Below are positions 1,167-58,561 of a stretch of 64,000 bases of DNA, piece after piece. Made by a program: the position numbers and the translations under genes. Where the stretch lies: positions 314,464,001-314,528,000 of the forward strand of contig OZ024743.1 in NCBI GenBank assembly GCA_964016885.1, given 5' to 3'. Under the pieces are notes generated by a model. That model made no database searches and was not told the DNA's origin. It saw only the letters and a program-made list of their open reading frames with translations. The stretch's first letter is position 1; each line of letters begins with the position of its first letter. The stretch is from Eledone cirrhosa (lineage: Eukaryota).

Positions 1167-1211
1167 GCTCTGACGAATCCTACGGTTACGTAAGGAAGAA
1201 ACATTGTAAGC
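1167..1211 (+). ncRNA. Type I hammerhead ribozyme in a PLE terminal-repeat fragment (about 900-1260)
   Basis: gct-CTGACGA-a-TCCTACG-gtta-CGTAAGGA-a-GAAA-CATTG-TA/-agc, followed by AATAAA and (TA)n. Confidence 0.7.
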
Positions 1212-1517
1212 CAATAAAAATCTTTTGATGTTGTAGACGCTCTTGTGTTCTTTATCATATATATATATATATATATATATATATATAGGAGAGAGAGAGA
1301 GAGGAAGAGAGGAAGAGAGGAAGAGAGAAAGACGAGAGGGAGGGATGTAAATCCTGACCACAGCTCAAAGCGGCTTCAGCTTATGTGTCCAGCAAGCCTT
1401 TCAAAGTTCTCTTTAAAAGAATTGCTGAAAAGACAAACCGAAAGATCTTACGCCGCGGTCTGGTATTACATATCTCTCTCACACTCCGCCGGTAAATCTC
1501 AACCCGTTTCGACGGCT

Positions 1518-1569
1518 AGCGTGCTGGACCCATAACGCAGAGGTCCGTAGATCAAAACTACCTATACTA
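1518..1569 (+). pseudogene. Initiator tRNA-Met (CAT) fragment, 3' two-thirds, degenerate
   Basis: agcgtgctggaccCATaacgcagaggtccgtagatcaaaactac closely resembles eukaryotic tRNAiMet (AGCGTGCTGGGCCCATAACCCAGAGGTC...GATCGAAAC). The 5' acceptor/D arm is missing. Confidence 0.7.
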
Positions 1570-2262
1570 ATCATGTTTGTTATATATATATATATATATA
1601 TATATATATATATATATATATATATATATATATATATATATATATAGAGAGAGAGAGAGAGAGAGAGAGAGAGAGAGAGAGAGAGAGAGAGAGAGAGAGA
1701 GAGAGAGAGAGAGAGAGAGAGAGAGAGAGAGATAGATACATATACATTATATGCTTGATGTAGAAAATATTCCATCAGCATTGCCCGTATGATGTTTTTC
1801 GCACCACCAAGACTTGGGCCCCTTACCATCCTCCCACAACAAAATTCAAACCTGCATGTCATAACAACTTTACGGCCCAATTATTTCACTTCAATTGATC
1901 CCGCACTCCTTAAAATTAAACCTCATGAGCTTAAAAAGTCTTATAAAAAATTCCTCAGGTATCCCAGATAAACCTCCTACAACGGAATATGGCTCCGTAA
2001 ACAATAACTCACTGATTGAGTGGGTCATGGTGTCCAACTCCTGATTTGAAAGACTTCGCCATGTGGTGCTATTAATTAGACATGGCCTGGGCCAGTACTG
2101 GCTGAAACCTATCAAAATTGTAAAGCTATATATATATATATAGAGAGAGAGAGAGAGAGAAAATTGTGGCTGGTAATGGCACATGGAATATATAAGAGAC
2201 AGAATACTTTTTTGTGAAAAAATATATAATTTTATAAGGTAAGGAAATAATAAAGGCTGTAA

Positions 2263-2310
2263 AAAATGACCGGTTTCGATGGGTCTGCAAAAGCCATCTT
2301 TTCAAATGTT
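2263..2310 (-). ncRNA. Hammerhead-like motif, U3-A8 core variant (PLE repeat about 2160-2600)
   Basis: Minus strand: aacat-TTGAAAA-GATGG-loop-CCATC-GAAA-CCGG-TC/-atttt. Confidence 0.6.
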
Positions 2311-2619
2311 GATTAATATTAAGAAAAATTAATAATACGAAGAGTTAAAATTTGAGATTTGAAAATTCAAGTATAAAATTCATTGTGGGATTTCATAGTA
2401 GTTTTCATCTAGGTAGCAACAACAAGTTGACTGCTGTGTCCCTTTCTGGTAGTGAATGAGAAGTTATTTGGGGTCTGGGTTATTTTATAAAGGTCACATT
2501 TAGCAATGGCCAACTGGCCAGCTGCTGGTCAGTGAGGGGGTGGAAGCAATATACATACATATATCTTCCTGTGGTGGGTAGGAGAGTGGAGCGTGATAGA
2601 AAGGGATTTAGTGCACTTA

Positions 2620-3086
2620 CACCTATATATACACACATACCTTCATCCACACATACATACATATACATATACATCCACATATACATATATATATATATAT
2701 ATATATATATATATACATATACACACATACATACACACACACATACATATACATACACGCATACACACACACACACACACATATATACACATACACACAC
2801 ACACACACATATATATAGACATACACACACATATATATACACACACACAGACATATATATATATATATATATATATATACACATACGCATACATCCAGAT
2901 ACACACATACATACACACACACAATATATTCCATGTGCCATTACCAACCTCAATTTTCTCTATAACCTTCGTTTTGTGTAGAAAATTACACTGTTCATAT
3001 ATATATATATATATATATATATATATATATATATATACACATATAGACACACATGTATATATGCATATATATATATATATATATAT
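2620..3086. repeat. Compound (TA)n/(CA)n microsatellite
   Basis: Direct inspection; source of the YIYI/HTHT ORFs. Confidence 0.95.
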
Positions 3087-3410
3087 TATAACTGAACATA
3101 AAAGAAAACCGAGCACAGGCATATACATATATGTGTTCAAATCGTAAGGGACCAGATTTGCTAAGGTGAAAAGAATACTGACTATAGACAATAGGGTTTG
3201 CCAGACTCAATTTAAAGCTGTCCGGGTGATTGGTATTTACCACAATTCCGGTTTTTATTAACTTTCTTGATTTATTCTTAAATTGAGTCTCGCAAACCCT
3301 ATTGTCTATAGTTAGTATTCTTTTCACCTTAGCGAATCTGGTCCCTTACGATTTGAACACATATATGTATATATCTGTGTTCGTTCTTCATTTATGTTCA
3401 GTTATAATAT
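3083..3410. repeat. Fold-back repeat (about 133-bp inverted arms) of a short interspersed, probably PLE-derived family
   Basis: 3083-3215 is the reverse complement of 3278-3410 with few mismatches. Further copies at about 5277-5475 and 39590-39710. Confidence 0.85.
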
Positions 3411-3537
3411 ACGGCTCGGAATATTCTCTTTCCTAGAAAAATCTCTTTCCTAGAGCTAATGTATTGTAAACCTATCAAAATTGTCAAAGTTATATATATA
3501 TTTATATATATATATATATATATATATATATATATAC

Positions 3538-55944: not shown

Positions 55945-56206
55945 TGTTTTTCGTTTTTTCGTTCATTGCCAGAGAACGTCTCTATGCACCACCTAATAGA
56001 ACATTAGTCTACGACCTCTTTTATACCATAAACGTGGTTTTGTCTTTGCGCGTAATTGTTTTTCACCGCTCCTATTAATGACGTATTATTCGTTTTTTCC
56101 CGTTCTTTGCCAGCGTTTACAGATTGACTTTGTTAGTTTCAGAAGATCCCGTTAAGGGTGAAAGCAGCGATTCTTTGCTTAAACTTTAATCTGTTAATTT
56201 AATAAA
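55945..56206 (+). mobile_element. Solo, internally deleted copy of the Naiad 3' terminal repeat
   Basis: Matches about 52510-52837 with a deletion of about 65 bp; flanked by TA tracts. Confidence 0.9.
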
Positions 56207-56626
56207 TATATATATATATGTATATATATATATATGTATATATATATATATATATATATATATATATATATATATATATATATATATATATATATATATA
56301 TATATATATATAATTATATATATATATATATATATATATATATATATAATAGGATATGTGTTCCTTCACGCACAAGGCGCTAAGGGACGCATGTATTGTC
56401 CAACCAATTATTTGCTAAACCTTGTTTATATATATATATATATATATATATATATATATATATATATGTATATATATATATATGTATATACATATATATA
56501 TACATATTACCATGTATATATACATACATATATATATATATGTATGTATATATGTGTATATATATATATATATATATATATATATATATATATATATATA
56601 TATATACATATATATATATATATATA

Positions 56627-57173
56627 CAGGGTAACATGTATCCCAGTACACCAAGGTTTCTTGGTGAGGAGGGTGACTTTGAACATTCTGCAGGACTAAA
56701 AACAAAACCTGCCAAATGGCAAAGGAGCTCTTAAGAGTCAATGGCCATCCGAAATCACCGGGAGAGATGACCCCTTAGCCTTTGTCAAGGCATAATTCTA
56801 GGAAAATTCTAGGAAAACTCTGATATAACACCTGCAACTCTGATGGTATCCAATGATGTCGACTTGTTCTTCTTTTTGGTAAATATCATCTTGGTTAAGA
56901 GAGTGGGAGGGGCTTTGTGCAGTGCCTTTGCTCACTATAAAAGCTTCACGGCACAGGCATTGCTTTATTTCTGGAGATCTATCTGCACTTGTCGTCACAT
57001 GGTACCATGGGCCCAGCACTATGTGTCAATAATTGTCACAGTGTAGTGTTTGTACCAGAGTTTTCAAGTCGCTGGCTGGACTAAAAAGTTACACTCGTTC
57101 AGCGCATCGGTAGGAGTTCCCCTACATGGATATAAAGTAGTGGCCGTACTCGAAAACGAGTTGGCAGCCACCA
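56627..57173 (+). repeat. Interspersed repeat, probably an RTE-type LINE 5' region
   Basis: Inverted copy at 10168-10475; the segment tagcctttgtcaaggcat..tctagg..aaaactctga resembles 47590-47670 (minus). Confidence 0.5.
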
Positions 57174-57174
57174 T

Positions 57175-57715
57175 ATGTATATATATATATATATATATAT
57201 ATATATATATATATATATATATATACATAAATATATATATATGTATATATATATATATATATATATATATATATATACATAAATATATATATATGTATAT
57301 ATATATATATATATATATATATATATATATATATATATATATAAATATATATATATATATATATATATATATATAAATATATATATATAAATATATATAT
57401 ATATATATGTATATATATATATATATATATATGTATATATATATGTATATATGTATATATATATATATATATATATGTATATATATATATATATGTGTAT
57501 ATATATATATATATATATATATATATATATATATATATATATATGTATATATATATATATATATATATATATATGTATATATATATATATATATATATAT
57601 ATATATATATATATATATATATGTATATATATATATATATATATATATATATATGTATATATATATATGTATATATATATATGTATATATATATATATAT
57701 ATATACATATATATA
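57175..57715. repeat. Long (TA)n/TATG microsatellite
   Basis: Direct inspection. Confidence 0.95.
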
Positions 57716-57764
57716 GTGACGAAACATAAGTCAATTGCATGAACTCATAATCCTTTATTTATTG

Positions 57765-57815
57765 GTATATATATTTCGATGATAGCCATTGAATGGCTAT
57801 GACCTCATCAGTTAG
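57765..57815 (-). ncRNA. Hammerhead-like motif with canonical core and weak helix I
   Basis: Minus strand: CTGATGA-GGTc-ATAGCCAT-tca-ATGGCTAT-cATC-GAAA-TATA-TA. Confidence 0.55.
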
Positions 57816-57900
57816 TTAGTCAGTTCCTAGATATGCCAGCTCTGTGTGTATATTGTTGATGGTATCAGAGCCTTGGGACATACATATATATATATATATA

Positions 57901-58561
57901 TTTATTAAAATAACAGATTAAAGTTTAAGCAAAGAATCGCTGCTTTCACCCTTAACGGGATCTTCTGAAACTAACAAAGTCAATCTGTAAACGCAGAACT
58001 GGATATTTCAAAAAACGTTGCAACCGGAGGAAGACAGAAAGACGATACTTTGGTTCGTGGTAACGTTCGCTGGCAAAGAACGGGAAAAAACGAATAATAC
58101 GTAATTAATAGGAGCGGTCAAAATCAATTACGCGCAAAGACAAAACCACGTTTATGGTATAAAAGAGGTCGTAGACTAATGTTCTCTTAGGTGGTGCATA
58201 GAGACGTTCTCTAGCAATGAACGAAAAAACGAAGAAAATAAGCCATATGTGGAGCGTGGAGAACAATAGCACGCAAAGACAAAACCACGTAAATGGTATA
58301 GCAGAAATCGTAGACTAAAATTCTAACTAGGAGACCAAATGAATCTCCGCTACAGAGTTAAGAACAAAGTAAATAAATACAATACAGAAGTAATAGAAAC
58401 AAATAAATACATACACGCAAACAGATACGTACATACACAAGCATACGCAAAACCTTACCATGGGTATACAAAACCACGCACATATAAATATGTGTGTGTG
58501 TGTATGCTTGTGTACAAATAAATAAATAATTATATAAACGTATATAAGTAAATAAATACGT
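57901..58561 (-). mobile_element. Inverted copy of the Naiad 3' region/terminal repeat
   Basis: Reverse complement of about 52177-52837. Confidence 0.92.

Follow-up and report, generated by a model that had tools for sequence, protein, structure and literature searches.

Hammerhead motifs in TA repeats of the Eledone cirrhosa genome: ends of Penelope-like elements and probable retrozymes

Penelope-like elements (PLEs) are described with a characteristic package (PMC8557442): they target (TA)n, have a sense hammerhead ribozyme close to the 3' end, and come as partial tandems together with a tail and an inverted 5' copy. In vitro, such a tail marks two internal sites at which the reverse transcriptase (RT) of the PLE protein starts (PMC11167929). 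A kinship between retrozymes and the pseudo-long terminal repeats (pLTRs) of PLEs has been proposed (PMC7229834), and it has been argued from sequence and distribution (bioRxiv 10.64898/2026.07.22.740005). PLE hammerheads in TA repeats, animal retrozymes and the proposed kinship of both are therefore published matters. Here we consider them together in a stretch of 64,000 nucleotides from Eledone cirrhosa (assembly GCA_964016885.1, contig OZ024743.1, positions 314,464,001 to 314,528,000 of the forward strand), hereafter the window, where an original prediction, made from the sequence, had placed 15 or more type I hammerheads at 18 sites. Our reading, to which we give a probability of about 0.8, is that 10 of the 12 hammerhead families of the window are PLE 3' ends, and that the remaining two, F and K, are retrozymes that a PLE-type enzyme likely copies into (TA)n.

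PLE ends and ORF-less tandem units

The longer copies of each family were scored for RT or GIY-YIG endonuclease coding sequence upstream on the same strand, with loci extending 1.5 kb upstream. The open reading frame (ORF) of a PLE was found upstream in 7 of 10 loci of family A (window copy included), 5 of 30 of J, 2 of 8 of I, 2 of 20 of M and 1 of 25 of G, as well as in one of four upstream stretches of D; PLE coding sequence preceded 10 of the 22 matches listed for C, and the endonuclease three of eight loci of B and three of eight matches of H, in the latter 148-185 nt upstream. For E and J, broken ORFs lie inside the window itself. Families A-E, G-J and M are thus all contiguous with PLE ORFs, and none is the ORF-less tandem unit expected of a retrozyme. 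The 5' ends of J and G make a continuous truncation ladder, and their 3' ends are fixed at (TA)n; the prediction that PLE pLTR hammerheads sit in that repeat is supported. We read these ten families as 5'-truncated PLE ends, an arrangement already published. That many units have no ORF, as had been claimed, holds for copies but not for families, ten of which join PLE ORFs in longer copies; the condition named as speaking against the prediction, that short units are random truncations of PLEs without shared ends, fits the 5' truncation ladder of these ten families, although their 3' ends are shared.

Judged by eye from motifs, J, A, D, H, I and M look Hydra-like, B, E and G Neptune-like, and C Nematis-like. 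Family J has, again by eye, what a Hydra-clade PLE should have: RT followed by a C-terminal GIY-YIG, DKT, a CxCx5C linker, CxxC and CxH, no CCHH, and RWR where the Hydra clade has RWK; its pLTR, inverted 5' copy, tail, (TA)n target and 5' truncation are all present. A PDB search with the endonuclease half of J returned no match. In its 3' untranslated region (UTR), 139-bp repeats lie at 52420-52675, just 5' of the hammerhead. In family M (loci L178-L197, window 57716-57884), 5' truncations cluster 71-73 nt before the core, a hot spot that falls on an AT-alternating stretch matching the target.

Family K, with a unit of about 430-480 bp, has 23,637 exact motif matches genome-wide, and in none of 30 loci was a PLE ORF reached within the 1.5 kb; nor was one in the ten best-matching loci of F, a choice that favours long copies. 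The window copy of K, a 429-bp unit, continues beyond its own start. Elsewhere K forms arrays of 420-500-bp units, near-identical within one array: 100 motifs, which amount to 59 dispersed insertions, have 30 same-strand neighbours, 29 of them at 420-538 bp. In 8 of the 10 loci of F, a stretch of the unit's own 3' end comes before a full unit; a full dimer with two complete hammerheads was not seen. Both families are head-to-tail and ORF-less, with a type I hammerhead per unit. Set against the 150-450 nt range of retrozymes, K units, at 420-500, agree roughly, and F, at 830, falls outside, but within the 51-972 bp given in bioRxiv 10.64898/2026.07.22.740005. Both have a GC content below 50% and a strongly self-paired monomer (z -8.2 for K and -2.2 for F, the least paired of five ORF-less units spanning -2.2 to -9.2), whereas five PLE 3' UTR controls, at +0.5 to -1.9, do no better than shuffles (linear folds, 8-15 shuffles each). 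By their genomic anatomy, K and F class as non-LTR retrozymes. Of the diverse non-autonomous retrozyme system originally proposed there remains family F, one of the 11 families listed, to which K, then missed, has to be added; the other ten join PLE coding sequence. Three more ORF-less tandem families, P, Q and S, occur elsewhere in the genome (Table 1), and in all five (K, F, P, Q and S) the core is still canonical or of the U3-A8 type. One K array (L092:6082-10000 and L093:1-937) consists of an inverted arm of about two units followed by eight units, with (TA)n at both ends and, in every unit, an internal TA tract of varying length. At L047:8000-8900, two 467-bp repeats each hold an intact hammerhead with a long helix III and may be a retrozyme or a pLTR.

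The way in which these units are inserted is what links the two kinds. Among 100 motifs listed for each family, close opposite-strand neighbours lie head-to-head rather than tail-to-tail in K (11 vs 0), G (20 vs 0) and J (16 vs 1), and neither G nor J has a same-strand neighbour within 1 kb. In head-to-head insertions with (TA)n at both ends, the arms stop at two different fixed sites, one each, and one end of each type was found in 13 of 14 insertions of J, 6 of 6 of G, and 2 of 2 each of K, P and S; the first-end anchor of K also matches plain microsatellite, and single-end counts were ignored. BLAST maps of K add about seven two-end insertions, whose arms stop close to unit positions 285-308 and 346-359. 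Because their insertions carry this PLE scar, with a (TA)n target and, in K and two further families, an inverted arm and two fixed 3' ends, the ORF-less families most likely use PLE machinery. As every end falls 3' of the hammerhead cut site, the template would be a circle or an uncut multimer. The PLE-driven mobilisation foreseen by the original prediction is supported by the anatomy of the insertions, from which we infer the step itself. In the scenario that we propose, the PLE protein would nick (TA)n, and reverse transcription would start inside the PLE RNA at either of two fixed sites 3' of the hammerhead, as it does in vitro for another PLE and as the two fixed 3' ends suggest here. It would mostly stop early, leaving the short ends, often with an inverted second arm, that are seen in the genome. 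The same would apply to retrozyme RNA, likely an uncut multimer or a circle cut by the hammerhead, which, when read through its own start, would yield the observed range from 1.1-mers to arrays of eight or more.

Hammerhead cores in the window and across the genome

Motifs were sought with a descriptor of the type I core, CUGANGA...GAAA...UH, and three helices, which in its final form admits a mismatch at the base of helix II and a helix II longer than 40-60 nt; stricter early versions missed family F and the long-helix-II form at 38042. Some cut sites, AATAAA distances and core positions were read by hand. All 18 predicted sites show the order GAAA, helix III, UH, or a remnant of such a motif, and they fall into 11 families (A-J and M), above the minimum of eight that had been claimed. 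The count of 15 or more type I hammerheads holds in the sense that 16 of the 18 sites are homologues, but only four copies (C3 at 1170+, 4740+, 12724- and 39359+) have an intact core with three helices. Three others, at 2306-, 37268- and 48828+, combine the covariant U3-A8 core with a helix I that is weak or damaged (in family B, this core recurs in eight of eight loci); two, at 15174+ (an inversion junction) and 57811-, retain the core intact but lack helix I in the window copy; one, at 45802-, has a mutated GAAA that is intact in six of six other copies; and six carry core changes fixed in the family, four in J (U4A) and two in D (U4C and A6U). The two sites of family E, 8466- and 12196+, are doubtful, because their U3-A8 core and helix II come without a good helix III or helix I. 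AATAAA, said to follow the hammerheads usually, does so at 11 of the 18 sites, as counted by eye. Two intact motifs, at 44491- and 38042-, had been missed. At the level of families, the core is canonical in A, C, F, H, I, K and M and covariant U3-A8 in B and G; the U3-A8 pair and a U-U at the base of helix II are both known natural variants (PMC3088659).

The window contains six intact-core matches scoring at least 24, against a mean of 0.27 (maximum 2) in 30 local dinucleotide shuffles. Helix covariation, which had been put forward as a check, was borne out on helix I, held out of the search: the first three pairs form in 66 of 143 matches as against 0 of 26 in shuffles, and across 19 families, with four pair types, the pairing covaries (15, 15, 11 and 13 of 19; permutation p<=0.003, values that are optimistic because the families are related). 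Three helices with covariation are thereby shown for the motifs, though not for family E.

To estimate the genomic load, we took 100 stretches of 10 kb at round coordinates (999,600 bp) of the 3.0-Gb genome. The descriptor gave 78 matches per Mb (bootstrap 45-111), and 0, 0 and 0 in three shuffles; with helix II allowed up to 100 nt there were 107 matches in the sample against 1 in shuffles. Four of the sample matches are false, all from one A-rich repeat. Exact patterns of J, K, G and M were counted 6, 15, 2 and 1 times where whole-genome counts predict 5.7, 7.9, 3.8 and 0.8, the excess of K being due to one array that over-sampled it. From this sample we estimate about 80-100 intact cores per Mb, roughly 0.2-0.3 million in the genome, with a range of 135,000-330,000. 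By comparison, 120,000 hammerheads are reported in axolotl (PMC7229834), a figure that the estimated load would exceed in a 3-Gb genome.

The cores of families J and D are not intact. Family J has at least 16,966 exact matches in the genome, and core position 4 is A in 100 of 100 among those listed; matches with another base at this position number 159 and are divided, in the 100 listed, between 36 U, 38 G and 26 C, the spread expected if copies mutated once inserted. Contigs from four runs, to which we give no weight because their kind and independence are uncertain, showed no other base at this position at the 5% level. In D, a subfamily has U4C together with A6U in 52 of 58 genome matches. 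Because J amplified with a U4A core, cleavage is likely dispensable for autonomous PLEs, and this pattern fits the in vitro finding that a PLE inserts without cleavage (PMC11167929). Retrozymes, by contrast, likely need cleavage, as their cores stay intact. It is known that U4C lowers activity, yet supports a viroid (PMC3088659); in the literature consulted, U4A was not found discussed together with the other named core variants. A separate family (cluster 9, in sampled stretches L034, L035 and L044) has U4C in three of three copies.

Weighing the explanations

If most short units were independent non-autonomous retrozyme families, as the prediction taken broadly would have it, one would understand that most copies lack an ORF and that family M has a favoured 5' end, at which 8 of 20 copies begin (71-73 nt before the core). 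However, ten families join PLE ORFs, the 5' ends of J and G make a continuous ladder, these two families have no same-strand neighbours within 1 kb, and short and long copies of M share the two main variant positions equally (4:4 vs 3:3; 2:6 vs 2:4; 14 of 20 copies compared, six being dropped for indels). We consider this broad version largely refuted and very improbable. An even smaller place is left for the idea that the motifs are chance matches in AT-rich repeats. To be sure, an Rfam scan of the window returned no hammerhead family among the matches listed (150 of 159, E<=1), and the descriptor finds an intact core in only 4 of the 18 listed copies; against this stand the 78 matches per Mb where three shuffles gave 0, the covariation of the held-out helix I, and the fact that position and U-U closing pair equal those of published Hydra-clade hammerheads (PMC8557442). 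Chance is refuted, except possibly for family E.

Two further explanations concern K and F. Unequal crossing-over at a solo pLTR could have built their arrays locally as satellites, in place of retrotransposition as units, a model that is discussed in bioRxiv 10.64898/2026.07.22.740005 and that would also account for near-identical units within one array. Yet 100 K motifs are spread over 59 dispersed insertions, arrays have inverted arms and both PLE-type ends at (TA)n, and even single insertions wrap past their own start, so that such local growth appears improbable. Harder to set aside, although in our view still unlikely, is that PLE enzymes moved K and F from linear, uncut read-through RNA, with an idle hammerhead and no circle, a possibility that departs from our preferred reading only in the template. 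Indeed, the anole PLE mainly uses uncut RNA in vitro and its ribozyme mutants insert normally (PMC11167929), family J spread despite U4A, and eight of nine Xenopus retrozyme dimers are reported without cleavage (bioRxiv 10.64898/2026.07.22.740005). By contrast, K, F, P, Q and S keep canonical or U3-A8 cores and are strongly self-paired, as described for circular retrozyme RNAs (PMC7229834).

The reading that we prefer, PLE ends for ten families and PLE-copied retrozymes for F and K, also meets a number of adverse points. Retrozymes and PLE ends differ in how intact their cores are, but with so few families the difference is not statistically significant. The links of D and G to PLE ORFs come from a single locus each, clade labels were assigned by eye without a tree, and the 1.5-kb reach upstream leaves room for a rare ORF-bearing copy of K or F. 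No autonomous partner of K or F appeared by sequence, and BLAST searches of the sampled sequence for a homologous PLE pLTR (queries K, P, Q and F) gave only K-Q and a weak K-P kinship among the matches listed. For the ORF-less families the strict two-end count is six insertions, none of them from Q; the pattern suits one K insertion (L127) poorly, and F showed no inverted arm in 10 loci. Single hammerhead motifs fold no better than shuffles (nine of nine with z above -1.4).

What is new in this material is genomic evidence on the mechanism of retrozyme mobilisation: ORF-less families that carry the PLE scar, with mapped start sites, are found beside a successful core-changed PLE and many intact-core families. 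With such matched material in one genome, both the mobilisation of retrozymes and the role of the ribozyme in PLEs become directly testable. A bolder picture, offered tentatively and at somewhat less than even odds, would be that of 0.2-0.3 million intact hammerheads and of five or more retrozyme families that PLE RT, starting at two internal sites, rolls off RNA circles, in a genome where the hammerhead would serve the parasite and not the host element, as a 17,000-copy PLE with a dead U4A ribozyme may suggest. If this were true, the (TA)n scar with its tail and inverted arm would prove directly, and for the first time from a genome, how animal retrozymes move.

Window features and comparison with described systems

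Table 1. Hammerhead-bearing features of the window, followed by ORF-less tandem families from other genomic stretches (L numbers). Descriptions of PLE type are by motif.
Feature	Position	Strand	Description
Family A	1..1257	+	Hydra-like PLE 3' UTR; intact hammerhead C3 1170, cut site 1208; then (TA)n; PLE ORF end about 925 bp left of window
Family B	2264..2311	-	U3-A8 core (U3 at 2306), helix I weak; Neptune-like PLE 3' end
Family C	3536..4989	.	Nematis-like PLE fragment (minus) and inverted arm with intact hammerhead C3 4740+, cut site 4774
Family D	5541..6232	+	Truncated Hydra-like PLE 3' UTR; C3 6001, U4C and A6U
Family E	8222..12434	-	Neptune-like PLE; broken RT and endonuclease 10619-12045; inverted 5' copy 11967-12434
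Family E, doubtful hammerheads	8466-, 12196+		U3-A8
Family F	12469..13534	-	ORF-less 830-bp unit and partial repeat; intact long-helix-II hammerhead C3 12724, cut site 12623
C-like hammerhead	15135..15225	+	C3 15174, at inversion junction; helix I lost
Family D, second truncated copy	30828..31089	-	C3 about 31061
Family G, head-to-head insertion	37164..37450	.	U3-A8 hammerhead 37268-; Neptune-like PLE end
Hammerhead with long helix II	37925..38050	-	Intact; C3 38042, cut site 37932; missed by original prediction
Family H	39349..39496	+	Hydra-like PLE 3' end; intact hammerhead C3 39359, cut site 39388
Family K	44226..44819	-	ORF-less 429-bp unit, terminal redundancy; intact hammerhead C3 44491, cut site 44461; missed by original prediction
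Family I, head-to-head insertion	45644..46463	.	Long-helix-II hammerhead C3 about 45802-, GAAA mutated here; Hydra-like PLE end
Family G copy	48783..48999	+	U3-A8 hammerhead at 48828
Family J, near-complete Hydra-like PLE	49436..52837	+	Inverted tail, pLTR, ORF, 3' UTR, pLTR, (TA)n
Family J hammerheads	C3 49654 and C3 52771	+	One per pLTR; core U4A
Family J, broken RT-endonuclease ORF	49724-51810	+	
Family J, truncated copy	55947..56206	+	C3 56140
Family M, short copy	57716..57884	-	Core intact (C3 57811), helix I mutated here; Hydra-like PLE end
Family J, truncated copy	57901..58561	-	C3 57967
Family P	L042:9585-10000 and L043:1-1901		ORF-less tandem, 310 bp; inverted arm
Family Q	L033:2400-3800		ORF-less tandem, 466 bp; inverted arm; related to K
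Family S	L104:6400-10000 and L105:1-800		ORF-less tandem, 591 bp, U3-A8 core; inverted arm

The window is rich in (TA)n, and at least 62% of it is covered by repeats found in a limited genome sample. No host exon was found in it: none of 72 small ORFs has a Pfam match, and of 22 long ORFs four match transposon domains and 18 nothing. With most hammerhead copies damaged, the suggestion that active copies might cut a host pre-mRNA, were the window an intron, receives no support. Further PLE ends, absent from the original list and cut off inside the hammerhead or decayed at it, lie at 38756-38893, 55556-55768, 55320-55393, 35407-35598, 62400-62444, 39756-39897 and 46365-46463. An abundant family of about 190 bp, which we take to be a short interspersed element, recurs, partly nested, at 6817-7038, 13638-13851, 16058-16956, 18087-18285 and 32540-33199, with further copies at 41386-41824, 42990-43182, 43835-44041 and 60117-60314. 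Two broken elements resembling long interspersed elements, at 23628-28912 (-) and 52817-55177, have Pfam matches to AP endonuclease, zf-RVT or RVT_1; the latter has an inverted 5' part and sits in (TA)n after family J. At 21178-22728 (-), broken ORFs of 199 and 237 aa have no Pfam match and resemble a DNA-transposon protein.

Among described systems, the Hydra-clade PLEs of PMC8557442, Hydra-1_Obim included, share with the elements found here the C-terminal GIY-YIG, RW[K/R], DKT and CxCx5C, the (TA)n target, the sense hammerhead close to the 3' end, whose helix II has U-U at its base, and the partial tandem with inverted copy and tail; by eye, the family J protein resembles the octopus Hydra-clade element of that paper's supplement. 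They differ in the core, which is U4 in all Hydra-clade entries of its File S2, whereas here more than 99% of the roughly 17,000 J matches carry U4A and the D subfamily U4C and A6U, and in size, as 3' UTRs here reach 1-2 kb and the J tail about 85 nt where 30-40 bp are described. With the Neptune and Nematis PLEs of the same paper (Fig. S2), likewise matched by eye, the common points are the linker Cx2-5CxxC, a spacing before GIY that is long in B, E and G and short in C, the pLTR hammerhead and the inverted arms; the Neptune-like B, E and G differ here by the U3-A8 core pair, a natural variant according to PMC3088659.

The non-LTR retrozymes of coral, mussel and axolotl (PMC7229834; bioRxiv 10.64898/2026.07.22.740005) resemble the ORF-less families in their tandem units with one type I hammerhead each, a GC content of 35-42%, strong self-pairing and the presence of PLEs in the same genome. 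Unlike them, units here reach 590-830 nt, and the insertions have two fixed 3' ends and inverted arms besides their (TA)n targets. We did not find this scar described for retrozymes in the main text of the preprint, which mentions neither a tail nor molluscs or octopus and has 'inverted' only in a reference title, or in PMC7229834, where that word is absent; a literature search on the point returned only PMC8557442, and supplements or repeat databases may hold it. Finally, although Poseidon of Anolis carolinensis belongs to another clade and is an autonomous element, not a retrozyme, its behaviour in vitro (PMC11167929) is alike in that two internal RT start sites explain the tail, nicking is AT-rich, and insertion proceeds without the hammerhead.

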